Shown piece after piece: positions 10,346 through 50,000 of a stretch of 64,000 nt of DNA (within the stretch, counting starts at the first letter, position 1; each line of letters starts with the position of its first letter). Position numbers and translations under genes: made by a program. Location of the stretch: NCBI GenBank assembly GCA_964409035.1, contig CAYPBQ010000004.1, positions 7,687 to 71,686 of the forward strand, read 5' to 3'. The DNA comes from an uncultured Candidatus Saccharibacteria bacterium. GTDB lineage: Bacteria > Patescibacteriota > Minisyncoccia > Phycocordibacterales > UBA12088. The notes beneath the pieces were generated by a model that was not told the origin of the DNA, ran no database searches, and saw only the letters and a program-made list of their open reading frames with translations.

Positions 10346-10349
10346 TGAT

Positions 10350-11366
10350 ATGGATACCAAAAAAACATATTTCATTTCTGGGGTTGCCGGTTTCCTTGGG
10401 AGCCATTTAGCCGAACATCTTTTGAAAGAGGGTAATCGGGTTATTGGAAACGATACCCTCATTGGAGGATACCTCGATAATATCCCAGAAGGGGTTGAAT
10501 TTCATCAGGTAGACTGCCTCGACTTTGCCCGAATGAAGGAGCTCATGAAAGATGTTGATGTGGTGTATCACACAGCAGCGTACGCATATGAGGGATTGTC
10601 TGTTTTTTCACCTCATGTTGTTTGCGAAAATGTTTTTAGCGCTACTACCTCAGTGTTAAGCGCGGCAATCGCAAACAAGGTAAGACGGTTCGTATACTGT
10701 TCGAGTATGGCTCGCTACGGAGAACAACCGCAAACACCATTTACCGAGGATATGACACCTCGTCCGCAGGATCCTTACGCGATAGCTAAACTTGCCGCTG
10801 AAGACCAAGCTCGTCTTCTTGGCGCTATTCACGGCATGGAGGTGGTTATTGCCATTCCACATAACATCATTGGTCCTCGGCAGAAGTATGATGACCCGTA
10901 TAGAAATGTTGCCTCTATTATGATTAACCTCATGCTCCAGGGTAGGCAACCTGTTATATATGGGGATGGAAACCAGATGCGATGCTTCTCATTTGTTAAT
11001 GATGTTGTTGATCCATTAAAAAAGCTCGCCTACTTGCCTGAGGTTGTTGGTGAGTCCATCAATGTCGGACCTGATGAAGAGTTTGTGACGATCAATGATC
11101 TTGCAAGGGTTATCGCGGATCAACTCAACTTTACCCTAGAGCCAATCTACATGCCGGGGAGACCACAAGAGGTATTGAAGGCAACATGCAGCGCTGATAA
11201 GGCTCGAAGGCTCTTGGGTTATAAAACCACTACCACTCTTGAGGAAGGCATAGCCGAGATGATTGCGTACATACAGAGCCGTGGTCCAAAGCCTTTTAGC
11301 TACCACCTCAATCTTGAAATTGTAAACGACAAAACACCCAAGACGTGGAAAGACAAGATTTTCTAA
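10350..11366 (+). CDS. NAD-dependent nucleotide-sugar epimerase/dehydratase (extended SDR)
   Basis: ISGVAGFLGSHLAEHLLKEGNRVIGND (GxxGxxG) with YxxxK-type catalytic region. ATG at 10350 immediately after the upstream stop. Confidence 0.75.
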   Translation: MDTKKTYFISGVAGFLGSHLAEHLLKEGNRVIGNDTLIGGYLDNIPEGVEFHQVDCLDFARMKELMKDVDVVYHTAAYAYEGLSVFSPHVVCENVFSATTSVLSAAIANKVRRFVYCSSMARYGEQPQTPFTEDMTPRPQDPYAIAKLAAEDQARLLGAIHGMEVVIAIPHNIIGPRQKYDDPYRNVASIMINLMLQGRQPVIYGDGNQMRCFSFVNDVVDPLKKLAYLPEVVGESINVGPDEEFVTINDLARVIADQLNFTLEPIYMPGRPQEVLKATCSADKARRLLGYKTTTTLEEGIAEMIAYIQSRGPKPFSYHLNLEIVNDKTPKTWKDKIF

Positions 11367-17199: not shown

Positions 17200-18438
17200 T
17201 CAACCCAATGCTTGTATTTTCGATTGAATGAGGTTTTTTGTGAATGTTACATCGCCAATGTCTAATGATGCGGTAACCAATTTCTCCATATCCTCAGGTG
17301 CTATATCTAGTAGGTCTTGAAGCAGGTCATACCATAGAGATTCTTGCATGTGGTACAAGAACCGTTTTTGATCATTTCCAAAATATGCGGTGATGGCTGT
17401 GTTAGATAGGCTGATATCCCACAACACATCTATGATGTGTAGTGATAAGAGATCATCCGTATCTGCGCATCTTCCACCAAGGGATGTAGCATCCTTAAAA
17501 AAGCTAAATGCCGGTATGTTAAAAATAGAATCAAAAGCTATAAGAGCATGTTGCCAGTACAAATTCTCGTCGTATACATTTGGAGTCGTAAAGTGAGCAA
17601 ATGAATCTCGGTGATTGCGTATGACACTAACTAGTTTAGTGCCTATTGGTTCTGATGCATTCGTGTTTGAACTTTCAGCTACAAATTTACCAGCATAGAT
17701 GACCTCAAAGTAGTAATGAAGAAATACTGTAGCGCGAGTAAGAAGTGGGGCAGTGGCTGACACATTCTTATCAGCAGTGAAAAAAGTGATTACCCCAGCT
17801 TCCTTGCTATGACTCACGCGCCAAGGCTTGAGTGTCCTCCCTGCATTATTAAGAGTTTGCGAATATTGCTGCATATCTAAGACTTGCAGGGCTAGTTCTC
17901 TGTCTTCAAAATCAGCAGCAGTACAAGCGCTAAGTGATGATTGGTACGCATGTTGCCACGCATCATCTTCCGTGTGCCTTGTTGCAGAAAGTATCATTCT
18001 AAGTGAAAGTTTTTTACTTAAGTTCTCTATGTTGTCAGCATGGTGAAGCTTTAAAAGAGCATGCGGAGGATTTGCTACAAGCAATCTCTTAATTGCAGTA
18101 TCAGTGAGGTACTTGGTGGCTATGGGGTTGTGTGGAATAGAGTCGAGCAATGAATGCCCAAATGTTAGAAGCGCATCAGCACTGGAAGGATCAACCAATG
18201 GAAATATATTTTTTAGTGTGCGCTCTATTTCTTCAATTAAAGCAATCATTTTGTTGTGAGCACACGCCGATGCGTCAGATGAAGAAATGTCGCATCCTAA
18301 TGCGACTACCTTCTCGCGAAACTGCTTTTGATTCTTATCAGAGAGAATCTGTAATTTTTCGTGTGTATTTGGGAGCACTTCAAGAAGATGGCTACACTCA
18401 TCATTAAGTATGTGCTGTAGGTGGGGAATTGATTTCAT
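17200..18438 (-). CDS. Hypothetical protein (412 aa), no recognisable motif; probably co-transcribed with the downstream CysK-like gene
   Basis: Long ORF with coding-like composition. The only support is the open frame and operon context. Confidence 0.4.
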   Translation of the reverse strand: MKSIPHLQHILNDECSHLLEVLPNTHEKLQILSDKNQKQFREKVVALGCDISSSDASACAHNKMIALIEEIERTLKNIFPLVDPSSADALLTFGHSLLDSIPHNPIATKYLTDTAIKRLLVANPPHALLKLHHADNIENLSKKLSLRMILSATRHTEDDAWQHAYQSSLSACTAADFEDRELALQVLDMQQYSQTLNNAGRTLKPWRVSHSKEAGVITFFTADKNVSATAPLLTRATVFLHYYFEVIYAGKFVAESSNTNASEPIGTKLVSVIRNHRDSFAHFTTPNVYDENLYWQHALIAFDSIFNIPAFSFFKDATSLGGRCADTDDLLSLHIIDVLWDISLSNTAITAYFGNDQKRFLYHMQESLWYDLLQDLLDIAPEDMEKLVTASLDIGDVTFTKNLIQSKIQALG

Positions 18439-18566: not shown

Positions 18567-19844
18567 TTAATTTGGTGTAGTAAATATCTTGTTTAAATAT
18601 ATCGAGCCTAGCCCAGCTTGTAGGATGCGCGCACCGATGCGGGCGACAATCGCACCCATGATGCCAAAGAAGGCAATACCAATAACCAGTGAACAGATTT
18701 GAATCACTGACCCAGTGATTTGTAGTGTGTATAGCTCCCTTACTTTTTTGTGTGCTTTTAGAATGGTATTTGGGATAGACATAAGCGCCCCAAGTATGGT
18801 GAGTGAGAGTAGTTGAGTGTAGGGGATACTCGCAAGATATTGTGGAAAGAGTAGTGCAAATATATATGGAGCAAGTAGGGCATAGATGCCAGCAATGGCA
18901 AGGAGGAATACACCAAAAAGCATCATTCGAGCATAGATAGTGCGTCCTATCTCATTGATTGAACGTTCTGCAAACTTTGGCAGCGCAACAGTGCTTATCG
19001 TGCGCGTCATGTTGCGTATGTAGTCGGGAAATAGGGTAGCAAAGGTGTATATCGCAAGCTCAATCGGTCCTAAAAAGTAGAATACTAAGACCTTGTCTAT
19101 GTGGTTGGTGATTACATAAAAACCATTTATGTAACTAAGGTGTTTGCCGTACTCGATGGTGTCTGTGTGTGTTGCGCCATCAACTAATACCTCGTGGTAC
19201 TTGTTTACGACAAACATAAGCATTATCGCGTGTGCTGCGGTATAAAACGCAAAGTATGCAATCACCAGCGAGAGTAGCTCTGTGGAGTAAAACAAGGCGC
19301 TCACAACACCTAGGGTGCCGGCAATATGCGCAAGCGTGACATACATACTTGTTCGCTTGAAATCCTTTTTTCCACTTAGGTACGATGAGTACATCTGTAC
19401 AGGCTCAAATAGAGGGAGGAATACCGCAGCGACAACTAACGCAAGTGCTAGTTCAGTATGTTGCTCTACTACATAGTAATAGATGGCAATACCTAATGCG
19501 GCAACTGATGCAAGGACACCCCAACGCATGCGAACCATAAGGCTATATGCAAAAACTCCTCTTTCATTAAGCGCGACCGCTCTTACAACTGATGTTGCAA
19601 GACCTGGTAGGGTAAGAGCACCCAATACACCAGCAACAGAGAGAATGAATCGATAGTTACCAAAGACTTCAGGAGGAATGAGGTTGGCAAATGCATAGGA
19701 TAGAATGAGCCCTGATGCACCAGTAATCAGTTGCCCGAAAGTAATCCAAAACCCTCCACCCAGGAGGTATTTCATGTCGGTTTTGGTGTACCGCTCGGAT
19801 TTTTTCAGTATGACAAGAAGGCGGTTTTTTAGGGATGTGAGCAT
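18567..19844 (-). CDS. Wzx-like oligosaccharide flippase (MOP/MATE superfamily polysaccharide biosynthesis protein)
   Basis: 425 aa with 12 predicted TM helices. The N-terminus (GGGFWITFGQLITGASGLILSYAFANLIPPEVFG) is typical of the Polysacc_synt/Wzx family. Confidence 0.65.
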   Translation of the reverse strand: MLTSLKNRLLVILKKSERYTKTDMKYLLGGGFWITFGQLITGASGLILSYAFANLIPPEVFGNYRFILSVAGVLGALTLPGLATSVVRAVALNERGVFAYSLMVRMRWGVLASVAALGIAIYYYVVEQHTELALALVVAAVFLPLFEPVQMYSSYLSGKKDFKRTSMYVTLAHIAGTLGVVSALFYSTELLSLVIAYFAFYTAAHAIMLMFVVNKYHEVLVDGATHTDTIEYGKHLSYINGFYVITNHIDKVLVFYFLGPIELAIYTFATLFPDYIRNMTRTISTVALPKFAERSINEIGRTIYARMMLFGVFLLAIAGIYALLAPYIFALLFPQYLASIPYTQLLSLTILGALMSIPNTILKAHKKVRELYTLQITGSVIQICSLVIGIAFFGIMGAIVARIGARILQAGLGSIYLNKIFTTPN

Positions 19845-25567: not shown

Positions 25568-25705
25568 TAGTATGGACAATCTGATACAAAAAATAGCATT
25601 CATGGTGGTAGGAGCAGTGCTTTTATTTACTAGCTATGTGTTGTGGAGTCCTGGGACGTTTGGGTTGTGTGAGGAGCCAGTTAGGCTCGTTGAGCATAAT
25701 ATTTT
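25560..25705 (+). repeat. 146-bp perfect direct repeat, copy 1 (RBS region + first 45 codons of paralog A); copy 2 at 26072-26217
   Basis: Base-by-base comparison: identical from 11 nt upstream of the ATG through codon 45, with divergence beginning at 25706 versus 26218. Confidence 0.8.
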
Positions 25706-26033
25706 CGGCACAGTTGAGAGGTGTGAAATTGGATTTAACATAGATTCAAGTATTAAAATAATTCTTGAATACATCGGACTGGTATTTGTGGTAGCAAGTT
25801 CGTTTTCTTTTTTTCTAAATTTTTCCCAATTTAAGGTCTTCATTAGCTCGTTTTTTATTGGGTTAATGCTTGTATTGTCTTTTATTTTCTTTTTCCCGGA
25901 TTTCGATGTTATGTACGGGGCTACTTATGACGTGAAGGATCGCTCGGCATCAGGTGCCTTAGTTTTGGCTATCTACACAGTTATTGTTTATTTGCATGCT
26001 CTAATAAGGGCAAAAACTCGTGATTTAAAGTAA
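25572..26033 (+). CDS. Small polytopic membrane protein, paralog A
   Basis: 153 aa with 4 predicted TM helices. First 45 codons are identical at nucleotide level to the next gene. Confidence 0.5.
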   Translation: MDNLIQKIAFMVVGAVLLFTSYVLWSPGTFGLCEEPVRLVEHNIFGTVERCEIGFNIDSSIKIILEYIGLVFVVASSFSFFLNFSQFKVFISSFFIGLMLVLSFIFFFPDFDVMYGATYDVKDRSASGALVLAIYTVIVYLHALIRAKTRDLK

Positions 26034-26071: not shown

Positions 26072-26217
26072 TAAAATAATAGTATGGACAATCTGATACA
26101 AAAAATAGCATTCATGGTGGTAGGAGCAGTGCTTTTATTTACTAGCTATGTGTTGTGGAGTCCTGGGACGTTTGGGTTGTGTGAGGAGCCAGTTAGGCTC
26201 GTTGAGCATAATATTTT
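26072..26217 (+). repeat. 146-bp perfect direct repeat, copy 2 (5' end of paralog B)
   Basis: See copy 1. Confidence 0.8.
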
Positions 26218-26548
26218 TGGTCAAATTGAAAGATGTACTCTGATATCAGCATCCGAGGTGCACAAATTTGCTGGAGTTGCTGAAAATATTGCTTTCATCA
26301 TAATAATATTTTTTACTTTCTCTTTCCTTTTCAACTCAACGCAATTTAGAATTTTTAGAAATCTATTTTTGATTGGATTAGTTGCAACTATATTATTTAT
26401 ATACTTCTTCCCAAATTTTGATGTTGCATTTGGTTCAACATTTGAAATAACACACCGAACAAGGGTGGGTTCATATGCGCTTGCGGTATATTCTGCAGTT
26501 GGATACATATATGCCCTTATAAAAGGAAGAGCTCAAAAAGCGAGTTAA
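26084..26548 (+). CDS. Small polytopic membrane protein, paralog B
   Basis: 154 aa. N-terminal 46 aa identical to paralog A, the remainder about 30% identical with the same hydropathy pattern. Confidence 0.5.
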   Translation: MDNLIQKIAFMVVGAVLLFTSYVLWSPGTFGLCEEPVRLVEHNIFGQIERCTLISASEVHKFAGVAENIAFIIIIFFTFSFLFNSTQFRIFRNLFLIGLVATILFIYFFPNFDVAFGSTFEITHRTRVGSYALAVYSAVGYIYALIKGRAQKAS

Positions 26549-27497: not shown

Positions 27498-28526
27498 ATG
27501 GACTTGAGAGAATACATATCACTTAGAGAATACTCTACATTTAAGACAGGCGGCAACGCCCGCTTTTTTGTTTCTGCTACTAGTATTGATGTGGTGCGTG
27601 AGGCAGTTGCATTTGCGAACTCCAAATCACTTCCATGGATCCTTCTCTCTGGGGGTTCAAATGTGCTGTTCGATGACAAAGGATTTGATGGGTTGGTCAT
27701 TCATATACAAATAAAGGGTATACATCTTGAACAAGGTGTAGGTGATACCGTTTTGCTCCATGCGGGTGCTGCCGAAGAGTGGGATTCTCTTGTTGTATAT
27801 GCGGTCGATCACGATTTGTGGGGATTAGAAAATCTCTCCGGTATACCTGGATACGTTGGTGCATCACTCGTACAAAATATTGGTGCGTATGGAGCAGAAG
27901 TTAAAGATGTATTTATGTGCGCGCATGTACTCGACACCAAACTAAATGAAGTGCGTACTGTAACCATAAAGGATGCTGACTTTGGTTATCGTCATAGTAT
28001 GTTTCAGCATAACGAGCATCTAGTTATCACTCATGTTACTTTCAAACTCTCTACTGTAGGTACACCACAACTCTCATATAAAGACCTTGCGCAGAGTGTG
28101 CTCACTGCACAATCTTCTGCGCGTGAGGTGCGAGATACAGTGCTAACGATACGGGCCAACAAGTTTCCACCGCTTACCATCTATGGCACTGCGGGGTCAT
28201 TTTTCAAAAACCCTCATATTACCCACGAGGCGTATGCTCACCTTAGAGAGCGGTACCCCCTAATTCCTGGCTATATAGAAGGGGATTTAGTAAAGGTACC
28301 TCTTGCCTGGATATTGGACAATGTACTAAATTTGAAAGGATACAAGCAAGGACATGCATCGTTATACGAACGACAGCCGCTTGTTATGGTTGCAGATGTT
28401 GGCGCGACAACACATGAAGTGCTCACACTTGCTGATGACATAATTAAAAAAGTTTTTGATGTTACTGCAATCACCATCACACCAGAGGTAACTATCATCA
28501 CTACATCGCATAAGAAAAAATTTTAA
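27498..28526 (+). CDS. murB: UDP-N-acetylenolpyruvoylglucosamine reductase (MurB)
   Basis: FAD-binding PCMH domain (TFKTGGNARFFVSATSIDVVREAVAFANSKSLPWILLSGGSNVLF) and C-terminal AGSFFKNP (MurB GSxFKNP substrate motif). ATG at 27498 chosen, because the upstream ~44 codons of the track ORF lack similarity. Confidence 0.7.
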   Translation: MDLREYISLREYSTFKTGGNARFFVSATSIDVVREAVAFANSKSLPWILLSGGSNVLFDDKGFDGLVIHIQIKGIHLEQGVGDTVLLHAGAAEEWDSLVVYAVDHDLWGLENLSGIPGYVGASLVQNIGAYGAEVKDVFMCAHVLDTKLNEVRTVTIKDADFGYRHSMFQHNEHLVITHVTFKLSTVGTPQLSYKDLAQSVLTAQSSAREVRDTVLTIRANKFPPLTIYGTAGSFFKNPHITHEAYAHLRERYPLIPGYIEGDLVKVPLAWILDNVLNLKGYKQGHASLYERQPLVMVADVGATTHEVLTLADDIIKKVFDVTAITITPEVTIITTSHKKKF

Positions 28527-28595
28527 TACATGACACTGCGTGCAAAATTTTTTGTAACAAGGTGTACATAAAAAATTTGTTAAAAAAAGTTATCC

Positions 28596-28683
28596 ACACA
28601 AATTGTGTAAATATTATTGTTAGTTACATTGTTGTGCATGATAATTATAACGAGCAGCGATACTATGTAACACAATGTGTTAC
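28596..28683 (+). promoter_or_regulatory. AT-rich upstream region with two inverted repeats sharing ACACA/TGTGT half-sites (ACACAA-a-TTGTGT at 28596-28608; GTAACACA-a-TGTGTTAC at 28667-28683)
   Basis: Inverted repeats read directly from the sequence. They lie 50-140 nt upstream of the lysine-rich small gene. Confidence 0.35.
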
Positions 28684-28732
28684 TGGTCGGATATCGTTCG
28701 CCTTTAATTGGTAAATTTGCATAAAAAAAATC

Positions 28733-28849
28733 ATGCCAGCAAAAAAGAAGCGAGTAGCTAAGAAAGCTACAAAGAAGGTAGCAAAGAAGCGAGTAGCTAA
28801 GAAAGCTACAAAGAAGGTAGCAAAGAAGGCAGCACGCCGCCGCCGATAA
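28733..28849 (+). CDS. Lysine/arginine-rich 38-aa basic protein (histone H1/Hc-like, KKAxKK repeats); missing from the ORF track because it is under 60 aa
   Basis: Translation: MPAKKKRVAKKATKKVAKKRVAKKATKKVAKKAARRRR*. It contains a perfect 39-bp tandem duplication (28747-28785 / 28786-28824). An A-rich tract precedes the ATG and a terminator hairpin lies at 28871-28897. Confidence 0.6.
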   Translation: MPAKKKRVAKKATKKVAKKRVAKKATKKVAKKAARRRR

Positions 28850-28870
28850 CTCTACTCTCTTGTAGAAAAC

Positions 28871-28897
28871 AAAACCCCCACAAGGGGTTTTGTTTTT
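28871..28897 (+). terminator. Intrinsic terminator AAAACCCC-caca-GGGGTTTT + TGTTTTTTG
   Basis: Read from the sequence, 22 nt after the stop of the lysine-rich ORF. Confidence 0.6.
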
Positions 28898-28946
28898 TGT
28901 TGTATCTTTGCGACTGCTTGATACAGCACTATGGTAGGGTATATGC

Positions 28947-29477
28947 ATGAGTCCGGTACATATACGAACAGCTCTACCAGAGGATAGCGCAGCTATGGTA
29001 GATATTTTATTCCGTGCATGGTGCGCAACATATGTAACACTTGGAGTTCCTGAAGCAGCAATTATCGAATCATTTGGTGATAGGGATAAAAAGATAGATG
29101 TGTATGCAGAGTATATAAAAGCACAAGATGTTTCTGCGCGTGTCGTTCTTGTTGCTGAAAATGATGAGGGGGTAGTGTGTGGTTTGTGTGTGCTAAACAA
29201 AAAAGATGAAATATGGAGGTTGTCACAGTTTTATGTTGATCCAACGTGGATAAGAATGGGTATCGGCTCTGCGCTAATGGCCGAGGCAATTGATCGTGCC
29301 AATACAGATATAGAGCTATCAGTTGTGGTAAACAATGATCGTGCAATCGCCTTTTATACAGCGCAGGGCTTTGCACCAACGGGAGAAACATCAAAATATC
29401 AGCTAACTAATACAGTGTATCTTGATGAGATTGTAATGAGGCGTTCAAGAGCTGGTAAGCGGGTTGAAGGCAGCTAA
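28947..29477 (+). CDS. GNAT family N-acetyltransferase
   Basis: 176 aa. Motif A VDPTWIRMGIGSALMAEAI (Q/R-x-x-G-x-G/A acetyl-CoA site) and motif B-like region AIAFYTAQGF. Confidence 0.65.
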   Translation: MSPVHIRTALPEDSAAMVDILFRAWCATYVTLGVPEAAIIESFGDRDKKIDVYAEYIKAQDVSARVVLVAENDEGVVCGLCVLNKKDEIWRLSQFYVDPTWIRMGIGSALMAEAIDRANTDIELSVVVNNDRAIAFYTAQGFAPTGETSKYQLTNTVYLDEIVMRRSRAGKRVEGS

Positions 29478-34932: not shown

Positions 34933-34989
34933 AAGTATCTCGTCTAGCCGACCTGTGTACAAGTGTATTGTGCTTTAAATAGCACTGGG

Positions 34990-34998
34990 TGGTATAAT
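34990..34998 (+). promoter_or_regulatory. Extended -10 element TGGTATAAT placed 7 nt before the ATG at 35005, implying a leaderless mRNA
   Basis: TGgTATAAT at 34990-34998; ATG at 35005. Confidence 0.4.
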
Positions 34999-35004
34999 TA
35001 CCGC

Positions 35005-35640
35005 ATGAAGGAGAACGCACTAGTATTTAATGGTAAGGCATATGTATCCTCGGTACGAGCATCACAGCTTACCGGTTATACTACTGATTACATCGGGCAA
35101 CTCTGCAGAGCAAATAGGGCAGACTGTAGGTTAGTCGGGCGTACCTGGTATGTCGAGCAGACATCCCTATGCGGCAGAAAGGTTCAAAAGCGTATTTCTG
35201 AGAACTCTCCTAAGGGAATGACTATAGAAATAAGAAGAAAGGGCACATATACTGATAGACAAAAGTATCTGGTTGAAGAGTTATCAAGGAGATCATCCTA
35301 TATTCCAAAAAACGAAGAGCAGATAGTTTTTGAGTATGATGATGCGCCACTATTTCCAGCGGTATCGAAGGAGTTACCAGTCGAATCACTCAAAAAAGTA
35401 GAGCCAGCTAAGACTTACGTTGAGGTACCTTCTGTTAAGAGAGACATTCTTTCACCAATTCAGACCCGACATATATCTCGAAGGGGTAAGTTTGCTATAC
35501 AGGGTATTTTACTGCCAGTCTCTGCTGTCCTTCTATTTGCTATTGCTACTTTTGGACTTGAAGCAACGTATTCATACTCAGATAAGGATGGTCTTACTCG
35601 GGGCGTTCAAGTCGTATCCGCATCAGAAATATCATTATAA
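35005..35640 (+). CDS. Membrane-anchored DNA-binding protein: N-terminal excisionase/MerR-type HTH (HTH_17-like) + C-terminal single TM
   Basis: SVRASQLTGYTTDYIGQLCRANRADCRLVGRTWYV matches the excisionase-family HTH pattern (compare ...vgr.Wr.). A basic linker and a TM helix (AIQGILLPVSAVLLFAIATFGL) follow. ATG at 35005 rather than the GTG at 34963. Confidence 0.5.
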   Translation: MKENALVFNGKAYVSSVRASQLTGYTTDYIGQLCRANRADCRLVGRTWYVEQTSLCGRKVQKRISENSPKGMTIEIRRKGTYTDRQKYLVEELSRRSSYIPKNEEQIVFEYDDAPLFPAVSKELPVESLKKVEPAKTYVEVPSVKRDILSPIQTRHISRRGKFAIQGILLPVSAVLLFAIATFGLEATYSYSDKDGLTRGVQVVSASEISL

Positions 35641-35675: not shown

Positions 35676-36240
35676 GATATACTCCTTAAAAAATTGGGAT
35701 TTTCAGCTTCGGTTTATTGCTTAAAAGTAATTAAGTACCGTTCATTTTGATACAAGGGCTACAAGAAAAATACTTAATGTGGATTTATTATTTTTATACT
35801 GGTTTAGTGTGGATTTATGACTGATCCCTTTGCATTAGTCTTGGTTATTTTGGCACAAACAGCTCTATTGGTATGGTAATGCCTTATCAACCCACATTTT
35901 GAAGTGTATTTGCACTCTAATTCATAATTCTGGGTAGTTTTAGAGTCAAATCACAAATTTTTGTAGCACTTCTACTTTTTCTATATTGGTAACTAAAAGG
36001 ATGGATCACATACACATATGCATGCGTATTTTATTTGTCCATACGATTACGCAATCTGACTTCCAAAGATTAATTTATGGGTAGTAAATATTGTTAAACA
36101 AAAATTTGAATGGTACACCATCTCGCTACTTCAATTAGAAATTTATAAGTAATTGTTATCCACACATATACATGATGCCTATTGTTGATTACGTTGTAAA
36201 ATATAATTAATTCGGCAATGCGAACTAGTTCGTTAAGTAT
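35676..36240. promoter_or_regulatory. ~565-bp AT-rich non-coding spacer (after the 35648-35675 terminator; ~600 bp between the two HTH genes) with an 11-bp direct repeat TGTGGATTTAT (35778-35788 and 35808-35818), a TATAAT at 36202-36207 and a perfect 12-bp palindrome CGAACTAGTTCG (36221-36232) 9 nt upstream of the next start codon
   Basis: No ORF over 60 aa in any frame. Repeat and palindrome coordinates were counted directly. Confidence 0.4.
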
Positions 36241-37155
36241 ATGAATCAAAAAATAATCGCAAAGCAAGAACTAATCTCATCAAACGAGGCATCGCGCCTA
36301 TCAGGGTATTCAACCGAGTATATCGCTCGTCTTTGTAGACGTGGTGACATAGAGGCTCGCAGAGTAGGAAGAGCGTGGTATGTGGTTGATGCTTCATTGA
36401 AGCAACATCTTTTAAAGAGGGATGGAAATATTGTTGAGAGTAATGACTCCACGCTAGCTCGAGATTTACTTCCAGCAGATCAGGCGGGTAAGTTTGTGGG
36501 GTACTCTGGAGACTACGTAGCTAAGCTTTGCAGAGAAGGGGTCATTTCTTGTAGTAAGGTTGGGCGGGTGTGGCATGCGCAGGTTGAGTCATTGAGGCAG
36601 TTTGAAGCCTTGCAATCTGCAAAGATTCAGGAAAAGAAACTTAGTCTTACAGAAGTTAGGCGCAAGGAATATCAAAATAAACAGAGAGCAAGAAAAATAG
36701 TAGAGGTAATAACTGGTAGATCACTTATCACGTTTTTTGCTGAACAAGGTGCAATGAGGAGTTTTGCTGTAGCACTATTTGCTCTTGCTACGGTGTTTGG
36801 GAGTGTGGAGCTGCAGCACAACAGATTAATTGTTAGTGCAGTCGATGCCGCTTCTACCATTGTTGAATCAGTTTATAACGGACGATTAGCAGATGATCAG
36901 GTGGCAAGTAGCGTGGATTCAACCCTGAAGGCTCATGATGATTCAGCGCAAGATAGAGCGCTTGGAATGGTAGTTATACCAAGCGATAACACGCAAAATA
37001 TTAACAACATCAAAGATTCTTTTTCTGATGAAGTAGTCATATCACGCGCTGATAGTACTACCGGAGTGATTACCCCAGTATTTAAAAATTCTAATGGAGA
37101 TGAATATCTGTACGTCATGGTGCCGGTTGATCAAACTATAAAAGAGAGCCCATAG
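36241..37155 (+). CDS. Membrane-anchored DNA-binding protein with two tandem excisionase-type HTH domains, one TM helix and a ~110-aa extracytoplasmic tail
   Basis: HTH 1: ASRLSGYSTEYIARLCRRGDIEARRVGRAWYV. HTH 2: AGKFVGYSGDYVAKLCREGVISCSKVGRVWHA. Basic linker, then TM FAVALFALATVFGSV. Paralogous to 35005-35640. Confidence 0.5.
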   Translation: MNQKIIAKQELISSNEASRLSGYSTEYIARLCRRGDIEARRVGRAWYVVDASLKQHLLKRDGNIVESNDSTLARDLLPADQAGKFVGYSGDYVAKLCREGVISCSKVGRVWHAQVESLRQFEALQSAKIQEKKLSLTEVRRKEYQNKQRARKIVEVITGRSLITFFAEQGAMRSFAVALFALATVFGSVELQHNRLIVSAVDAASTIVESVYNGRLADDQVASSVDSTLKAHDDSAQDRALGMVVIPSDNTQNINNIKDSFSDEVVISRADSTTGVITPVFKNSNGDEYLYVMVPVDQTIKESP

Positions 37156-39743: not shown

Positions 39744-41069
39744 ATGAAGAATGTTCTTTTACAATTTTTTCTTATCGTACTCATTATCTTCTTAGCTCCT
39801 CGCTATGCTGAGGGGCAAGGGAAAACCTTCGAAGTATCTTTTGAAGTAACTGATGGTATTGCATCTACTACTGTTATTTCTAATCCTCCACCAGGCGGCG
39901 GGCCACTTCCAGTACAGCCACAACCTATATTTATTGATATAGCGGTAGAGGCAACTACTGATTCTTCAGAAATATTCTGGAGCACAAATCCACACACAAG
40001 AGGAATAATCATGTGGGGTGCAACTCCAGACTTAGAGCTCGGATCAATCAGCGCTCCTCTATATAATAGAGAGCATACTACATTTATAGAGTCTCTTGTT
40101 GAGCAGAAAACCTACTACTTTCGGATTATTGCACAGGATGGCTTTGGAAATCTGATTGACTCTGGAGTTATCTCCTTTGTAACCAAGGGTAAGGATGACG
40201 TGCTATCGCCATCAAATCCTATTACCTTCACTGCAAAAGCAGAGGGTGTTGCGATTCGCCTTGATTGGCAAAATCCTTCCGATGAAGATTTTCGCTCGGT
40301 GCGAATTATTAGGAGTCCACTATTCTATCCCGCAGATATCGTAGATGGGGCGCTTGTATACGAAGGGTCTTTAGAGACATTCCTTGATACAGATGTGGTT
40401 ACTGACACCCGCTACTATTACACTTTGTTTGCAAAGGATGCTGCTGGTAATTACTCATCAGGAGTTGTTGCTGACGCGATCATCTTTGGAGATGGAGGTA
40501 TTGGAGAAGTACAAAAGCCATTTGAAAATCTTCCAAATGCGCCAATAGTACACCCACAGTTACAATCGATCACACTCTATGATCTTGAATATATTCAAAA
40601 GGGGATATTGCTTCCTGTCTCAAGTACCTCACCTCGAATATATATAGATGGAGGATATGACCTGTTAGTGAGGCTTGAGTACGGAAAAGTTCCTGAAGTG
40701 TTAAAGACTATTGCGATCACAATCACTGATCCGATTGAAAAAGACAAACACTTTTCTTTTCTTCTTCGAGTGAATAAGGATAAGTCGTACTATGAAGCAC
40801 GACTTTCACCACTTGAGAGGAAGGGGGTATACGAATTCCTTTTTGCAGTTCTTGATTACAAAAATCAAAACCTAAAAAAGCTGTACGGACAATTTATAGT
40901 TGATAAGGTTTCCTCGCTTATCACTGTCGTACGAACATCTCCCACACTTACTTACGCGCGTACTGCCCTCATGAGCTTCTTGATGCTCTTTATGATCTTC
41001 ATTATTGCCTGCCTAAGAAGAAGACAACAATTTACTGAGGAGTTACCACAATCATGCAATCGTTGCTAA
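39744..41069 (+). CDS. Secreted fibronectin type III domain protein with C-terminal TM anchor
   Basis: Signal peptide. FWSTNPHTRGIIMWGATPDLELGS...KTYYFRIIAQDGFGN is an FN3 / purple-acid-phosphatase-N-like fold. A second beta domain follows, then C-terminal TM MSFLMLFMIFIIACLRRRQQF. Confidence 0.5.
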   Translation: MKNVLLQFFLIVLIIFLAPRYAEGQGKTFEVSFEVTDGIASTTVISNPPPGGGPLPVQPQPIFIDIAVEATTDSSEIFWSTNPHTRGIIMWGATPDLELGSISAPLYNREHTTFIESLVEQKTYYFRIIAQDGFGNLIDSGVISFVTKGKDDVLSPSNPITFTAKAEGVAIRLDWQNPSDEDFRSVRIIRSPLFYPADIVDGALVYEGSLETFLDTDVVTDTRYYYTLFAKDAAGNYSSGVVADAIIFGDGGIGEVQKPFENLPNAPIVHPQLQSITLYDLEYIQKGILLPVSSTSPRIYIDGGYDLLVRLEYGKVPEVLKTIAITITDPIEKDKHFSFLLRVNKDKSYYEARLSPLERKGVYEFLFAVLDYKNQNLKKLYGQFIVDKVSSLITVVRTSPTLTYARTALMSFLMLFMIFIIACLRRRQQFTEELPQSCNRC

Positions 41070-44000
41070 AAACAACCGCATATATAGTTAATTTCATACT
41101 GCTTTTTGAAGCGGTGGTTTTTCCATTTTCATACTCTACCGCACAGGCGCAAGTTGCATTTACTCGTCAAATCAATTACCAGGGTAAACTCACTGATACA
41201 GTGGGTGGAGTAGTTGCTGATGGTAATTACAATCTTCGTTTCAAATTGTATACATCTGCAACTGGTGGCTCGCCAATATGGACTGAAACATGGTGCTACT
41301 CACCAAATGCTGGAATAACTTGTAACGGTACTGGAGTAAACAACAGACCAGCGCTGGTTAATGGATTGTTTTCAGTAATGCTTGGCTCAACCACTGCTCT
41401 TACTAGTATTAACTTCAATCAACCACTCTACTTAGGTGTAGAGGTAGGTGGTACTGGTACTACTCCAACATGGGATGGAGAGATGTCACCACGAAAGCGA
41501 TTAGGCACTGTGCCATCTGCATTTGAAGCAGAAAATGCACAAACAGTAGGTGGTGTTGCATCTTCTTCATTGCTAAGGAGCAACACGAGTGACGCCTACA
41601 CCTCGGGTACACTCACTTTCGATTCAGGGACATCTCTTGTGGTAAATGGTAATGCGACCTTTGCGAGGGCAACTACCACTAATGCAACAACCACTCATTT
41701 ATATATAGGTACGGATGTGTGGCTAAATGGAGAACGTTTTACCGACCTTACGGGTACTGGACTTAAAAATACTGCTGGAGCACTACAGGTTGATGATACC
41801 GTCTTTCTATCTCTTTCAAATTGGTTTGCAACCACCACCGATGCGCTTGATGAGGGATCATCAAATCTTTACTTTACTAATGCAAGAGTGGCTGCGTATA
41901 TTAACGCATCATCAACTATTCCACATGTTGCGGGTGGAGCATTTGGTAACATACTACGTTGGAGTGGCTCTGCATGGCAGAGTGTTGCCACCTCAACACT
42001 AAGGATTGCAATAGGAGATACCACCGGAACTTTATCCGTTGCTCGAGGAGGTACCGGCGCCACTACGCTAACTGGCGTACTTAAGGGTAACGGTACGAGC
42101 GCCTTCACTGCTATGACAGGGACTGCAAATTACGTTACTCGTTGGACTGATGCAAATACGCTTGGTACAGGAGTGCTCTATGATAATGGGACAAATGTAG
42201 GAATTGGAACCACAACCCCAATTGATAAATTGTTTGTGTATGGCGGTGATGTGAGTGTTGGGAAGTCATCAAACACTTCTTTTACAGGAACGCGAATATA
42301 CACAGGCGGAGTTGAGCGAGCACAAGTACTTGCAAACATCGATTCTACCGATGGCGGTAAATTAGTCTTTTATACAAAGGCATCAGGCGGATCAATAACT
42401 GAAGCGGCACGCTTTGACCAAGCGGGGAGAATGTCTATTGGTGTGGGTGCTACTCCATCAGGGCGCCTTCATGTTGCTGGGTCAGGAAATGTGCTTTTCA
42501 TGAATTCGGGCAACACCGGTATTGGCACCACCTCCCCATACGCAAAACTTTCTGTGGCAGGACACGTAGTCGGTGCATACTTCACCGCTACCACTACATC
42601 TACAAGTACATTGCCACGCACCAATATCACCCGCCTCACACTAGGGGGTGACTATGTTACTGATATCACCGGCACTGGACTTTCAGTATCATCTGGCTCA
42701 CTCAATGTATCTGCGGTACCAGCATCAGCTCTCTCACTCACTCAGGGATACACCTATGTGGGCAATGCTTCAAATGTTGCTTCTGCTACGTCGACGTTGT
42801 TTATTTCAACAGCAAAGAATGTGGGAGTGGGGACGACGGTGCCTGCGGCAAAATTGCAGATACAAGGATCAGGGGGAATTGGTCAATCAGTGATGATTGA
42901 TAACAGAGAATTGAAGTTTAGAGGAGATGGAGACGCTCACTACTCTATCTTTGCAAATAGAATAGCAGGAACACTAACCATTGAAGAGACGAGCGCAAAT
43001 GGAGATGTTGGATACGCTGGTTCAGTAAGGCTTGCAATACAGAAGACAACTGGGTATGTAGGTATAGGTACAGATACCCCTTTATCAAAACTTGATGTAG
43101 TTGGTGGTTCTCTTGGAGTACGTTCCTCTACACTTACAAATGGTTCAATTTATATAAATCCAGGTGGATCAGATTATGCGGGGTACATAGATTTTTATAA
43201 GGCAGGACCAACAAGAATCGCATATCTTGGATACAAGGATGGTGGTAGTGGTAATTTGGGATTAAATCTCGAAAACTCCGCTAGCTTTAACATAAATGGT
43301 GGCAATGTTGGTATTGGTACCACTAGCCCTACCGCACTACTTCATGTTCGCAAGGATCAGAATGAGGGAACTAAATCAAGAGTGGTAAACCTTAGTAGTG
43401 GCACCAATGCGTTTTCACAATTTTCAGTTGATGCGCTAGGTGCTAGTCTCTACAACTATGCAATAGGTTCTGGATACACTACTGCAGGACGATACGTAGC
43501 AGCCTCTGGCGCACTTGATGCAGTTGGTGCTGGTGGGCTTAGTATTTCTGCATCTGATGGTTCGGGAGTAATCCGATTTTATACTGCGGGGGATAATGAG
43601 CGACTTCGCATTACTAGCACAGGTAATGTTGGGATTGGCACCACCTCCCCATACGCAAAACTTTCTGTTGCAGGACACGTCGTCGGTGCATACTTCACTG
43701 CTACCACCACCTCAACCTCAACTCTCCCACGCACGAACATAACAAGACTCACACTAGGGGGTGACTATGTTACTGATATCACCGGCACTGGACTTTCAGT
43801 ATCATCTGGCTCACTCAATGTATCTGCGGTACCAGCATCAGCTCTCTCACTCACTCAGGGATACACCTATGTGGGCAATGCTTCAAATGTTGCTTCTGCT
43901 ACGTCGACGTTGTTTATGTCGAGCGCAAGTAGAGTAGGTATCAAACAAACCTCACCTGGAACCACACTTGATGTTGGCGCAAGCACCTTAGATACTATTC

Positions 44001-47000
44001 GCTCGTATGGGGGATTTGTTGGGCACGCATCAGCAAATATAGATGGAACGGGTGCGGCGGCGTACTTCCCAAATGGGCTATATTCAAATGCTGCTACCTC
44101 ATGGATATATGGCAATGTATATTTTTCCGCAGGTGCGTCTGTAATTCAGAGTGATGGGGATGTGGGTATTGGAACTACCAATCCTACAGGTAGATTCAGT
44201 ATTGTGTCGGCTGACTCGCCGTATATGTTTACGGTCTCTGGAGCTTCAAAAGGAGTGAGATTTGAAGGTAACTCAACGGGAGTAATTCTTTCGGGTGTAG
44301 ACAACACGCTGGCATCTTCGTACCAACCACTTTATATGAATGGTAGTTACCTTGGATTTCAAAACAGTACTACCGAAGTAATGAGGATAACAGGAAATAA
44401 AGTAGGCATAGGAACAACAAATCCAAACTATAAACTCACAGTGTCTGCTGGTGATCAAGATGGTATAAGTGTTGTTTCGTCAGGAACAGCTCGAATGGAA
44501 TTTAATCCAGATGGAGGAGGTGCGGTGGTATTTAACAACGCAGATGCGAATGGGTTTTACTTTAATCAAAATGGCACAACAAGGGTTACCTTTGATGGGT
44601 CTGGTAAAGTAGGCATCGGGACAGCGGCGCCTGACACTATTTTACACATTAGCAGCGCAACCCCAGTTCTACGAATAGACGCTTCAAATAACAATGTTGA
44701 TTCAACACTGCAGTTTCTTGGTAGAGATTCAAACAGTGGTCAGACCTCAAAGGTTCAATTCGTACAGGGAGTTACCGAAACAGTAAGTGGTATTGGTGCG
44801 ACGTTAAACATACTCACCACAAAGGAGAGTTCGGGTGGTTCTACTTTCACCTCATCAATGTTTATAAATAAACTTGGCAATGTAGGTATAGCAACAACTG
44901 CGCCCGCATATAAGATGGATGTAAACGGATACATCAATACCTCAGGGATAACTGGTGGATATAAGATGCAAGGTAACACCGTCCTCTATGCTTCTACGAC
45001 CAACACCTCTCTTGCGGTAGGGGCATCGTCTGCTGCTGCATGGATGCGCGCCTCTTCTTCTCAAAAGTACTCGATAGCGATGGGGTATCAAGCGCTTGCC
45101 GCTACTCCAACCGGAAACCCAACCAAAAACACCGCACTTGGTTTCTATGCCTTAAGTGCAAACACCTCTGGAACTCAAAACACATCAATAGGCGCAAATA
45201 CACTTCAACAAAACACCACTGGATCATATAACACTGCAGCGGGCGTACTTTCTCAATACGCCAACACCACCGGATCATACAACACCAGCTATGGCTACGC
45301 ATCTTTGTTTAGTAATACTACAGGAACAGACAACACCGCATTAGGATTTCAATCTCTCTACTACAATACGTCAGGAGTACACAATACTGCTGTGGGTCAG
45401 AATACATTACTTTCAAATACTACCGGATCATATAACAGTGCGTTTGGTCTACAAGCACTCCAAAGCAATACATCAGGAATACACAATACATCGATTGGAC
45501 GCACTTCGATGTATTTAAATACAAGCGGCTCATACAATGCTGCCCTCGGAATGTACGCCCTCTACTACAACACCTCTGCAACTACAAGTACCGCAATTGG
45601 TTGGGGTGCGGGACAAGGATCGACAAATTACTCAAATACAGGAGGTACATATGTTGGATATGCTGCTGGCTATAATTTAGGAAATGCTTCCAACTACAAC
45701 ACGCTCATTGGCCTTCAAACGGGATTCGGCATTACCACAGGAGCGCGTAACACTGTAATCGGCAACAGTACTATTGCTGCTTCATACAATCAAATCACCA
45801 CTGGAAGCAACAACATTGCAATTGGTAATGATGTTGCAGTACCGAGTGCTACCGCATCCAATCAATTAGTAATTGGCAACCTTATCTATGGCACAGGACT
45901 TAGTGGGACAGGAAGCACTGTCTCAACCGGAAGTATTGGTATCGGTATTGTAAATCCGACCGGTAAACTGCAAGTTGTTGGTGATGAGGTGCGCGTGGGT
46001 GATAGCGGATCGGTGGATATTGCGACTGCAGACGGAGATTTATTTGTCGAAGATGATCTTGAGGTTGATGGTGAGATATATGCCTCAACAATTCTCTCTG
46101 GGGATACTAACCTTGTTCCAAATTGGCAATTTGAGAGTGATGGCGCCTGGCCCGACCCTGCTGATACAGTAGAGACAACTTTTATTGATGGAGAATCTAT
46201 AAAGGCGCATCGATCGGTAGAGAGTGGCACGGGTTGTTATGGGTGGGGGCATTCGCCTACATTCTTGGTCAATCCAACTAAAACATATGAATTTAGTGTC
46301 TGGATAAAATCTACCGAGAATGACATGAACAACTACTTTGGATTTTTTGCGTATGACGCAAGTGGTACGCAAATATCTACTTCACCATTTGATAATCCGT
46401 ATTTTAGAGGGGATGAAAATGATCCAAATGAATGGCATAGGTGGAGTGGATACATCATGCCATCATACAGCGACGATAACGCTAATGGTTTTCCTGACGC
46501 AGGAGACTCACCACAAACACGAGGAGTGGATTATTCATGGCCAAGTAACACAGTCTCTGCCAAGGTGCGCTTTGGATCGTGTTATGGCGATGGCTCTAAT
46601 ACAGGCCTATCCTACTTTGCATACCCACAGGTAAAAGAGATACAGCCTGACAAACGCTTTGTAGAGGGTGATCATACAATATACGGGGATCTTGTGGTGG
46701 GACAATCAGGCGCAACAAACAAGGTCGATATTGCAAGTGGGACACGATCAGCAACACACGCGAGCGGGTTACCACTATATGTAACTGGCGATATAGGTGC
46801 CGCATCAAGTGGTATTGAGTTTAGACATTCAAATGGTTCACAAGGCATTGGCTTTGGCTACAATACTATTTATGCTACGGGTAGTAACTCTTCACAAGAG
46901 CTAAACTTTACCACAAAGGGTACTTCCGGCATGCACTTTCAAATTGGAGGAAATACCAAAATGGCTATTAATGGCACGACTGGCAACGTAGGCATCGGCA

Positions 47001-50000
47001 CTACAACACCTGGAGTAAAACTGGATGTTGTCGGCTCGATTCGAGCTTATTCAAATGCGCTTAACAATGCCACTATCGATCAAACAAAGATTGCTTTTAT
47101 AAATACAACAAACACTGCAGCCTTTGATGTTGGATTACTTGGAGGAACATCAGATGCGATTGCCTATCTATACAATCGAGCAAATGCAGCAATGATATTT
47201 GGTACAAACAACTCCTCAAGAATGACAATAGATGGTAGTGGAAATGTTGGTATCGGCACAACAAATCCTGGGCAAAAATTGGAAGTTACCGGTAATACCA
47301 CCATTACCGGCACATTACGCGTTGGTGCCTCAACCGGAGGATCGGGGACTGCTGGAGATATTGTTGCTCGACGTTCAGCAACAACTGGGGCTTATTATTT
47401 TGGGGATTCAACGAGTAATTATCTTTACTTCGATGGTACTAATTACATATTTGGTCTCGGGGGATTGTATGTTAATACCAACGGCAATGTAGGTATTGGC
47501 AACACTTCCCCCTCTCAAAAACTTGATGTTGTTGGCAACATAAAATCAACTGGATACGGTATTTTCCCAACAGGCATAGCACCTGCGGTAACTGGTGCTC
47601 CTGATGGAAAGATATTCTCACCTTCTGGTGACTACCTCGGAGCTACTACTTGGGGTATCAATTATAACGAGGGAACTCCAGATTATATTGAGTTTAATAA
47701 TGCAAGCGGAGCAACATCGAGGATTGCTTTGGATGATGGTAGTGCGCATTTTGCCTTAAGTGGCGGCTCTGTCGGTATTGGAACGACGGCACCAGGAAGT
47801 AAATTGGTTGTTAGTGGCGGCAATGTAACTATTGCTCCTACAGGTTCTGAAATTGCTGCTGGCTATAATCCTTTGTATGTTAATGCGCCTGTAGCTTCAT
47901 CGGTAACAACCGATGAAGAGGTTTCTACGGCTGGTATCAACATAAGAGGCTACGGAGACAATGTGAATTTGCAACTTGGGGTTGGGGGTTCGGCTTTGAA
48001 TTATTCTGGTTGGATACAGGCATCGTATGATAATGGTGGAACTGGAGGAGTAGAGCCACTGTTATTGAATCCTGCCGGTGGCAACGTTGGTATTGGCACG
48101 ACAAGCCCAACAAAAAAACTATCAACCTATCATACTGGTTCACAAAACGGCATAGAGATTGCAGGATATGTTCCTACGCTCTACTTTAGAAATGTCGGGT
48201 ACACGGGTGATCACTACCACATCTCTGTTGCAGAAACTGGAACTAATAGCACTTTTGCAATTAAAAACGAAACAGACGGTACGTACCCATTTGCCATTGA
48301 TGGGGCCGGAAAGGTGGGTATCTTAAATAGCTCTCCTACATACTCACTTGATGTAAGTGGCACCGGAAGATTTACCGACGATCTTTATATGGAGAGTGGG
48401 CTAAAGAGAGAAAACAACTCTCTTGATGATACTGACAGCTCATTATACATGCAGTACTACTCTAGTGGGGGTGGGGTGGTTATCGGTGATAGTGGTGTAG
48501 ATCACGACCTTACTGTGTATGGTACCGGTACATTTAATGAATATATTTATCTTCCTGACTCCAACACGCGCCTTAGTGAAGGTGCGGGTAACGCGCTTAG
48601 AATGCAAACCAACTCTGGATATATTGATATTGGCGCACAAAACACCTCGTACGCACACATTTATACTGATAGACCTGCCTTTTATACTAACGCACCTGTT
48701 CGTGTGCAAGGCTCGTTAAGTGTTGGTTCAGCAACCTATGCGGGAACTGATGCGCCAACAAACGGGGCTATTATTGAGGGAAATGTTGGTATCGGTACAA
48801 CAAATCCTGCATCATTTAAACTACAGGTTGCTGGAAATGTGGGGCCAGAGACAGATGCTACCTATGACCTTGGCTCATCTGCAAAGCGATGGAATAACTT
48901 GTACCTTACCAATGCGCCAATTATTGGTGGATATCACGACCTTACCAACGACAATCTTCTTTCTAATGGAGATTTTGAGACAGGCACCTTTACGGGCTGG
49001 ACTGCCTCGGGCACAACTGGTGTTGTTTCTGCGGGTGCCTATGCAGGAAATTACTCCGCACAGTCAACAGGAAATCAAACAGTGCTCAGTGATGATTACA
49101 TACCAGTTGATCCAGATTACGACGTGCTTCAACTTGAGGGATGGTTTAAAGAAACTACTACTGGTTCGCCAACACCCGGCGTATTGTATTTTGGCTACAT
49201 TGCGTATGACGAGAGCAAGGTAGCGATTACCACTAGCCCATGCGGCACCTATTGTTACTTTGCAGCATCAGGATATAACATTCCTAATGATGGTGCGTGG
49301 CACAAGTTTTCAGCTACCACCAATGGCGAAGGCACCAGTTACCCAAACTTCCCAGTGGGTACGAAGTATGTACGTGTGCTCATGCTTATGAACTACGCTG
49401 CATCATCAAATGAGGTTACCCGCTTTGACCACGTTACCCTCAAGAGAGTTAACAATGGACCTCTCTTTGTTGGAAATAACTTCTCAACAACAAACCTAGC
49501 TGATCAAAATCAGGCTACAAAGCTCTACACTACCGCATCAAATAATTTTGTTATTGAGCCGCCATCCTCGGGTAAGGTTGGTATTGGTACTGCGTCTCCA
49601 CGGCAAAAATTAGAAGTCATTGGTATATCTCAAATTTCATATGCTGACGGCGGTAATGATTTCTTGACCATACAGCCTTATACAGATGGGTACACGTATT
49701 TTAATTCTCATGGAGATGGCGCTGGAGAAGGTGGATTTAGATTTAGAACCAATGATGGAGCTGCAGAGTCTATGGTAATTACACACAGTGGTTATGTAGG
49801 GATAGGGACCACCGGTCCAGGCAACCTCCTTAGTGTAAACCAGGCGGGTAATGCAACAGTGGGTACCGGCACCACTTATGGAATAGCGCTATACAACCAA
49901 GGTACGTTAAACGCAGGGCTTGGCTCTGATGCAAGTAGTGTGTTTTTGCAAAGCTGGGCAGGCAAGCCACTTCATATAAACAATCAAGGCAATAATACGA

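Follow-up and report, generated by a model that had tools for sequence, protein, structure and literature searches.

Is the 38-codon, lysine-rich open reading frame (ORF) that follows murB in the DNA of an uncultured Candidatus Saccharibacteria bacterium a gene and, if so, what might its product do and how might its synthesis be controlled? The question is raised by a stretch of 64,000 nucleotides (nt) from contig CAYPBQ010000004.1 (assembly GCA_964409035.1). This full 64-kb stretch is referred to as the window, and designations such as L001 or L011 denote compared loci of its relatives. Judged by its conservation across lineages, the ORF is a real gene, maintained as a coding frame. We assign a probability of roughly one half to the reading that its product is a nucleic-acid-binding polycation, similar to the C-terminal tail of histone H1 or to a protamine, that is made from a self-contained unit (28582-28900) with a DnaA-linked promoter.

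A coding frame between murB and secA

The ORF and its surroundings are defined by the following features of the window.

27498-28526, forward strand: murB (UDP-N-acetylmuramate dehydrogenase), which lies upstream and anchors the synteny (NCBIfam NF000755, 307 bits, cut-off 277; Pfam FAD_binding_4 and MurB_C)
28733-28849, forward strand: gene of the 38-amino-acid (aa) Lys/Ala/Arg-rich mini-protein, which reads MPAKKKRVAKKATKKVAKKRVAKKATKKVAKKAARRRR; 21 of 38 residues are Lys or Arg, and the stop codon is at 28847-28849
28744-28828, forward strand: 39-bp in-frame tandem repeat of 2.2 copies, which encodes KRVAKKATKKVAK twice (Tandem Repeats Finder, TRF, 100% matches, score 170; also detected by a repeat finder)
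28862-28900, forward strand: intrinsic terminator that closes the monocistronic unit, with a perfect 13-bp stem (28866-28878/28884-28896) followed by a T run

The initial annotation had drawn attention to this ORF, its terminator, an A-rich leader and two inverted repeats, all of which are present in the window. Its description of the ORF as unannotated applies to an ORF track limited to 60 aa; in public gene calls the exact 38-aa product is listed on 11 contigs from different samples, one of which belongs to the uncultured Candidatus Saccharibacteria assembly GCA_964562615.1. The gene order on the contigs shown is murB - ORF - GNAT - secA - holin - obg - gatB, as far as the contigs reach. In the window secA begins downstream of GNAT at 29557, and the 342-aa form of MurB starting from the ATG at 27498 agrees with the relatives.

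More distant loci were obtained by scanning species-representative genomes with MurB and metagenomes with a MurB alignment. The first scan added two labelled Patescibacteria. In one of them, L019 (Saccharibacteria), MurB is of a different type (28% identical) and MPRKKRTSKKRTTRKKAAPKRKRSTGRKKATPRKRKTARRRKRR is located 113 nt past murB; in the other, L011 (Paceibacterota), MurB is 47% identical and MAKKKKATKKKAAKKKTTKRRK lies between murB and secA. The metagenome scan yielded about 20 further lineages, whose MurB and SecA proteins are 39-46% and 50-64% identical, respectively, to those of the window. Each of them contains a sense-strand Lys/Arg-rich ORF of 13-92 aa within a few hundred bases past murB, so that the small gene predicted at this syntenic position is found in about 22 lineages with MurB identities of 28-77%. 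In 18 loci secA is the next gene, and the gap between the stop codon of the ORF and the start of secA amounts to 41-241 nt (16 measured). The mini-ORF is missing from only three loci in which murB and secA are close together. In L012 (murB 10001-11074, secA from 11178) and L056 (murB to 5047, secA from 5118) murB directly adjoins secA, and in L072 a 328-aa ORF is situated between them. The remaining MurB loci (L058, L062-L119) have no comparable ORF beside murB, and tblastn searches of the murB-secA loci of the other lineages revealed no GNAT homologue beside the mini-gene or between murB and secA. Where Patescibacteria keep murB beside secA, murB - X - secA is a simple synteny rule by which the gene can be annotated.

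Between lineages the DNA of the ORF cannot be aligned. What is kept is the ATG, the frame, the stop codon, an N-terminus of the form M-[A/P]-A-K-K-K and a run of Arg/Lys before the stop. The initial annotation had named conservation of the region as a structured RNA as the result that would speak against a gene; across the lineages the region is kept as a coding frame and not as an RNA sequence. The H1-tail-like composition noted for the window protein is true of the whole family, which over 877 residues contains 43% Lys, 21% Ala, 15% Arg, 6.5% Thr, 6% Val, 4% Pro, 2% Ser and 1% Gly. Asp, Glu, Asn, Gln, His, the aromatic residues, Leu, Ile and Cys are essentially absent, the few that were counted stemming from one mis-framed entry. 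Since single-base changes in AAR codons readily give Glu, Asn, Gln, Ile or stop, all of which are excluded, and Thr and Arg are kept, the composition points to selection on the peptide.

These observations bear on the view that the ORF is untranslated and that the region is a non-coding RNA, a compositional accident or the complement of a real antisense gene. For this view one may cite the nucleotide conservation of the unit, which goes far beyond amino-acid selection, the fold of the transcript, with a z-score of -5.3, and an in-phase antisense frame that is open in all 21 of 21 lineages. The fold signal comes mainly from the terminator and from repeat hairpins, and no Rfam match supports an RNA family: none was obtained in the window at the gathering threshold, and at E<=10 the region 28450-29000 gave only sub-threshold, terminator-like noise. 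The antisense frame is open automatically, because the peptide is encoded without the codons TTA, CTA and TCA. The antisense ORF of the window (28580-29200, reverse strand, 206 aa) measures only 118 aa in L001, overlaps GNAT and has no Pfam match or other family match; it is a shadow ORF, as the initial annotation had supposed. With ATG, frame, composition and stop kept between lineages, and the nucleotides and length of the ORF not kept, an untranslated ORF has hardly any probability left.

The closest relatives, the L001 group, form a lineage distinct from the strain of the window, with protein identities of 77% for MurB, 71% for GNAT and 93% for SecA; the DNA of the neighbouring genes is 71-84% identical. 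In the nine contigs examined the ORF differs at 3-4 positions only, all of them synonymous third positions of Lys or Ala codons. Three synonymous codon changes stand against 13.6 expected from the rate in SecA (40%; P about 2e-5). The 163 nt upstream of the ORF are 96% identical between the window and the L001 group, compared with 58% and 41% for the flanking spacers. The whole unit (28570-28865) is 96-97% identical to L001, and the conservation stops abruptly, on the left at an A-tract and on the right at the terminator. A second pair of loci, L011 and L045, repeats the pattern, 67 of 69 nt of the ORF being identical at murB and secA identities of 76% and 82%. A single transfer event thus does not account for the frozen synonymous sites, which belong to the gene itself; they suggest, as the simplest reading, very strong codon or mRNA selection of the kind seen in highly expressed genes. 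In the ORF of the window Lys is encoded 12 times by AAG and 3 times by AAA; Val is always GTA, Thr always ACA and Ala always GCA or GCT.

The 39-bp duplication is exact in the window, as was first noted and as TRF confirmed. It does not mark a recent slippage event: the nine related contigs examined, which come from different samples, contain the same two copies, identical at 36 of 39 positions with three synonymous differences. Since the two copies have diverged at these three sites in the relatives, the duplication is old and happened before the divergence from a lineage with a MurB only 77% identical. The expectation that copy number varies is borne out in the wider family, most members of which are made of short repeats such as KAAKKPAKR (L042) or AVKK (L055); L060 (68 aa) and L061 (58 aa), on different contigs, match throughout 331 nt but for a single 30-bp repeat unit. 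Within the species group of the window copy number is fixed at two on all nine contigs. At 28741-28747 the ORF contains A_AAA_AAG, a classic -1 frameshift heptamer, in the correct phase over codons 3-5 (GCA AAA AAG), and a -1 slip there would terminate after MPAKK-EASS. The GCAAAAAAGAA start is also found in L041, L047 and L057, which may simply reflect the coding of AKKK.

A conserved box, promoter and leader

Upstream of the ORF the window contains four further elements.

28582-28598, forward strand: A-tract followed by a DnaA-box-like 9-mer, TTATCCACA (28590-28598), about 18 nt upstream of the -35 hexamer; one of the two perfect matches that the 64 kb contain
28617-28645, forward strand: predicted sigma-70-type promoter, TTGTTA - 17 nt - GATAAT (promoter scan 9 of 12)
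28667-28683, forward strand: predicted leader hairpin GTAACACAATGTGTTAC (inverted repeat 2, IR2), GTAACAC-AAT-GTGTTAC, contained in the minimum-free-energy fold
28685-28690, forward strand: GGTCGG, an instance of the leader motif (G)GTCGR, which is conserved and occurs directly after the hairpin or on the 3' side of its loop

The 9-mer TTATCCACA is the textbook consensus of the DnaA box. Either TTATCCACA or a variant with a single mismatch (TTATCCCCA, TTGTCCACA, TTATCAACA or ATATCCACA) precedes the mini-gene in all 21 lineages examined, at a conserved position and in the same orientation, and it is usually preceded by an A-tract. The 210 kb of sequence from these loci contain 18 perfect boxes, an eight-fold excess over the 2.3 expected; 12 of the 18 lie upstream of the mini-gene. 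The layout box - N12-19 - TTGnnn - about N17 - GATAAT was recognised in at least ten lineages. A replication origin at the box was considered and rejected on account of the single box and a GC skew that is positive throughout the window (43% G+C); the uniformity of the skew implies that the window contains no origin.

The second perfect TTATCCACA of the window (36156-36164) is situated about 18 nt upstream of a TTGATT...TATAAT promoter, behind which lies an ORF (36241-37155) with an N-terminal HTH_17 domain. The same arrangement is found in L011, where a box at 18240-18248 precedes an HTH_17 ORF starting at 18309. Paralogues of the HTH_17 gene at 34963-35640 in the window, at 17048 in L011 and at 17455 in L010 do not have the box. 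Since the box stands before the mini-gene and before an HTH_17 gene, it appears to define a small regulon. In L012, one of the loci from which the mini-ORF is missing, two TTATCCACA boxes (18118 and 18422) precede a different gene, at the end of the locus.

The paired TGTGT/ACACA inverted repeats had been put forward as candidate operators. A search of the 64-kb window for ACACA-N1-5-TGTGT found three sites against 0.59 expected, two of the three at the mini-gene. The first repeat (IR1, ACACAAATTGTGT at 28596-28608) overlaps the TTATCCACA box; in the closest relatives it is degraded to ACATAAATTGAGT and the overlapping box is kept instead. Neither repeat recurs in other lineages, and the proposal of operators was given up. 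NrdR-like boxes were also discarded as an explanation of the repeats, which have the wrong spacing and are not conserved. The stem of IR2 is kept in the L001 group despite a change of the closing C-G pair to U.G. Because U.G is tolerated in RNA only, IR2 would act as an RNA hairpin and not as a DNA palindrome. In most other lineages a hairpin likewise occupies this position in the leader, but its sequence is unrelated.

The leaders of 21 lineages, 2,940 nt in total, contain 19 exact matches to the motif GGTCGR, always on the sense strand, compared with 0.74 expected from the same loci. In L041 and L052 it occurs 7-8 nt past the -10 hexamer, at the predicted transcript start. The motif is extended to GGTCGRA-N-RTTGTTGT(AG) in L049, L055, L060 and L054 and to GGGTCGACA-N-ATATCAGTCRTAGCA in L011, L045 and L044. 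No common secondary structure of the leaders emerged: RNAalifold within groups gave 0-2 compensatory pairs, and the leaders vary too much in length for a global alignment. Several known elements were tried as identities of GGTCGR and rejected, namely the -10 element of sigma-28 or an extracytoplasmic-function (ECF) sigma factor (no consistent -35, variable distance to the ATG), the CtsR heptad GGTCAAA (one base off, no regular tandem), and a tRNA T-loop or anti-Shine-Dalgarno partner (the sequences do not fit). The end of the leader is A-rich and has no Shine-Dalgarno sequence. Taken together, the sequence comparisons identify a conserved control region of box, promoter and leader whose conserved elements are TTATCCACA and (G)GTCGR, not the TGTGT/ACACA repeats.

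The unit ends before the next gene begins, and two features of the window are relevant here.

28932-28940, forward strand: extended -10-like box TGGTAGGGT, 6 nt before the GNAT ATG at 28947; invariant between the window and the L001 group in a spacer that is otherwise 41% identical
28947-29477, forward strand: GNAT acetyltransferase gene, the downstream neighbour (Pfam Acetyltransf_1, 3e-15)

A strong hairpin and a T run follow the mini-gene in nearly every lineage. Downstream of this terminator, a TGnTAnnnT box precedes the start of GNAT and of most secA genes by 5-10 nt. Where inserted genes separate the ORF from secA, as they do in the window and in L019, the ORF retains its own promoter and terminator. 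From this arrangement the mini-gene unit is judged to be monocistronic, GNAT and secA having promoter boxes of their own. TGnTAnnnT, which resembles an extended -10, also occurs 6-8 nt before the ATG of many other window genes, most of which have no Shine-Dalgarno sequence; examples are found at 8924, 13868, 18567-19844 (reverse strand), 19903, 33535, 39744 and 62960. Such a box near the ATG is typical of leaderless mRNAs.

A cis-regulatory role, in which a Lys-codon-rich leader or arrest peptide analogous to secM governs read-through of the terminator into secA or GNAT, is suggested by 18 loci in which the ORF, short and dominated by a single residue type, immediately precedes secA, with a terminator in between. 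The window meets this picture in that the stop codon at 28847-28849 is followed by a stem from 28862/28866. In addition, AAGCGAGTAG, present in both repeats of the window ORF, shows 90% complementarity over 10 nt to CTACTCTCTT shortly past the stop codon, so that alternative pairings, and with them an antiterminator, are conceivable. Arguing against an attenuator is the finding that the mini-gene keeps its promoter and terminator when genes are inserted before secA, as in the window and L019. Nor was dependence on read-through or a link to an amino acid detected, the genes downstream being GNAT and secA with their own boxes and lysine supply having no obvious connection with secA. A leader that counts codons would not need constrained non-Lys positions or the exclusion of acidic residues, and it would not be expected to vary seven-fold in length. 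A leader-peptide function is accordingly very improbable.

Some observations concern the neighbourhood only. The GNAT protein weakly resembles RimI and spermidine/spermine acetyltransferases, at sub-threshold scores, and a lysine or N-terminal acetyltransferase next to a gene for a polylysine peptide would be suggestive. Two tandem paralogues at 25572-26033 and 26084-26548 encode proteins of 153 and 154 aa, probably membrane proteins, whose first 46 residues are identical; since L001 has a single 150-aa copy at this place, the duplication is recent in the lineage of the window. The window further contains a single ORF of 4,529 aa (41054-54643) and no tRNA genes.

A polycation and its possible targets

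The product is a pure Lys/Arg/Ala polycation with some Thr, Val and Pro, and its sequence suggests no globular domain. No family member has a signal peptide or a hydrophobic segment. For the window protein AlphaFold (AF2) predicts a single helix over residues 3-37 with a predicted local distance difference test score (pLDDT) of 89, as would be expected of Lys/Ala repeats that turn helical on a polyanion. In the proposed mechanism, transcription would start at the sigma-70-type promoter behind TTATCCACA, which is probably bound by DnaA, and synthesis would thus be tied to the state of replication. The mRNA would have an A-rich leader devoid of a Shine-Dalgarno sequence, with a variable hairpin and a GGUCGR element that possibly serves feedback or processing, and the strong terminator would end the unit. 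The peptide, presumably abundant, would bind and neutralise nucleic acid non-specifically as a counter-ion or condensing agent, most likely on the chromosome of very small cells; the helix would form on binding, and the length of the peptide would be tuned by gain and loss of repeat units. We infer DNA binding, control by DnaA and any function of the leader from the sequences compared.

Another possible target is the ribosome. The product could be a small basic protein associated with the ribosome or with RNA, similar to bS22, bL37, Thx or SRA, that makes up for the shortened rRNA of Patescibacteria and for the ribosomal proteins that they lack. It is tiny, extremely basic and, to judge from the frozen synonymous sites and the strong promoter and terminator, probably highly expressed; mRNAs of ribosomal proteins that regulate their own synthesis typically have a conserved structured leader, and ribosomes in the candidate phyla radiation (CPR) are reduced (PMC9297842). 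Ribosomal proteins, however, keep site, length and sequence, whereas this family ranges from 13 to 92 aa, gains or loses repeats between near-identical strains and is conserved in composition only. The gene is not linked to ribosomal-protein operons, and neither the NCBIfam models nor the PDB chains of ribosomal proteins (bS22, bL37, Thx, bL34, bL36) matched the product. The seven-fold range in length and the repeat indel argue for non-specific charge neutralisation rather than a fixed site on the ribosome, which we therefore regard as an unlikely destination.

A polycation might also act outside nucleic-acid packaging, as a membrane-active or host-directed cationic peptide or as a binder of polyphosphate or anionic cell-wall polymers. 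The period-4 pattern of Ala/Val and Lys-Lys and the predicted continuous helix resemble designed cationic helical peptides, and Patescibacteria are attached to hosts; for polyphosphate, Lys/Ala repeats of the AlgP type organise its granules (PMC9239181). The family members have no signal peptide or hydrophobic segment, and with no Leu, Ile, Phe or Trp their hydrophobicity is too low for insertion into a membrane. No transporter or immunity gene is linked to the ORF. A function of this kind is improbable.

Packaging of nucleic acid by an H1-tail-like polycation is thus the best of the explanations considered, and several points weigh against it. As partners of a polycation, rRNA, polyphosphate or membranes would do just as well, and for a nucleoid protein the 13-aa version found in L046 and L050 is very short. 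The frozen synonymous sites could derive from a role at the RNA level or from exchange of a cassette between lineages. That DnaA binds the box is suggested by the consensus match; the HTH_17 product could be the true binder, and neither a dnaA locus nor an oriC region was found in the DNA of the compared loci. Searches for known histone-like families also yielded nothing in favour: Pfam, including the Hc1/Hc2 models PF07432 and PF07382, gave no match for the 38-aa protein at E<=1 or for five longer members at E<=10. The NCBIfam model NF038053 (hist_H1_lk_Burk) reached at best 10.7 bits (E 0.45) with the 92-aa protein of L052, far from its cut-off of 80, and did not match the window protein. 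A phmmer search of the PDB at E<=10 returned 0 matches.

A bolder version of the packaging model can be formulated, in which the gene encodes a mini-protamine used throughout the Patescibacteria. It would be coupled to replication by the DnaA box, subject to feedback, by the peptide or some other factor, through a new cis-regulatory element formed by the leader hairpin and GGUCGR, tuned in length by repeat slippage, and in these cells of minimal metabolism it would replace polyamines and much of the nucleoid-protein set as the main counter-ion of DNA. We consider this version doubtful. If true, it would be the bacterial counterpart of the expression of histones in S phase.

The subject matters because Patescibacteria (CPR), with their tiny cells and genomes, form a considerable part of bacterial diversity, and because annotation and family databases pass over most of their small genes. 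The gene described here is invisible to similarity search, occupies one locus in deep lineages, bears hallmarks of very high expression and would be governed by a three-part control region of box, promoter and leader motif. If the peptide is a main counter-ion of DNA or RNA, it bears on the packaging of the chromosome in ultra-small bacteria; if control by DnaA is true, the gene is a concrete case in this phylum of DnaA acting as a cell-cycle transcription factor.

Relation to known systems

No description of the gene was found in the literature on small basic proteins, nucleoid proteins, DnaA boxes, promoters, transcriptomes and ribosomes of CPR/Patescibacteria. Among 1.84 billion representative proteins an exhaustive HMMER search detected no match at E<=0.001, and an exact-sequence cluster look-up retrieved none of eight family members from the collection. 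As far as these searches reach, the family is detectable by synteny only.

Leader peptides such as that of secM-secA share with the mini-gene a small ORF immediately upstream of secA in most lineages. They differ in that the mini-ORF has no signal sequence or arrest motif, and in that secA lies behind a strong terminator and a promoter of its own. The small ribosomal proteins bS22, bL37 and Thx are comparable in size, charge and likely high expression; they keep their sequence and length, which the mini-family does not.

Promoters regulated by DnaA boxes include those of dnaA and nrdAB in E. coli and of sda and dnaA in B. subtilis. The mini-gene resembles them in its perfect TTATCCACA, which closely precedes a sigma-70-type promoter in a fixed orientation and which, allowing at most one mismatch, is conserved across deep lineages. 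In contrast to these promoters it has a single box and no cluster, the role of DnaA is predicted, and a polycation would be a new target for such a site.

Eukaryotic protamines and the C-terminal domain of histone H1 are likewise very short, almost purely basic peptides that serve as counter-ions of DNA. ScvA of Coxiella is a basic protein of roughly 30 aa from the small-cell variant. The mini-family differs from all of these in being rich in Lys rather than Arg and in having no homology to them.

Another close parallel is provided by the bacterial H1-like proteins, among them Hc1 and Hc2 of Chlamydia, BpH1 and BpH2 of Bordetella, hist_H1_lk of Burkholderiales, AlgP of Pseudomonas and the C-terminal tail of mycobacterial HupB. 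The Lys/Ala(/Pro/Thr/Val) composition is shared, as are short tandem repeats whose number varies between strains, and the low-complexity Lys/Ala repeats with strain-to-strain copy variation by which such proteins are loosely recognised are present in the mini-family. By analogy, in composition and repeat behaviour the product matches the C-terminal tail of H1 and the H1-like proteins Hc2, BpH1, AlgP and the HupB tail, and the shared mode of action would be non-specific binding to a polyanion with formation of a helix on binding. The mini-family departs from these proteins in consisting of the tail only, with 13-92 aa, no N-terminal or globular domain and no similarity that models detect. As far as seen, it is confined to Patescibacteria, at the fixed locus murB-X-secA and with its own promoter-leader module. 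On present sequence evidence, the mini-family is thus new in being H1-like or protamine-like in kind but reduced to a tail, held at one place in the genome and accompanied by a conserved regulatory module.

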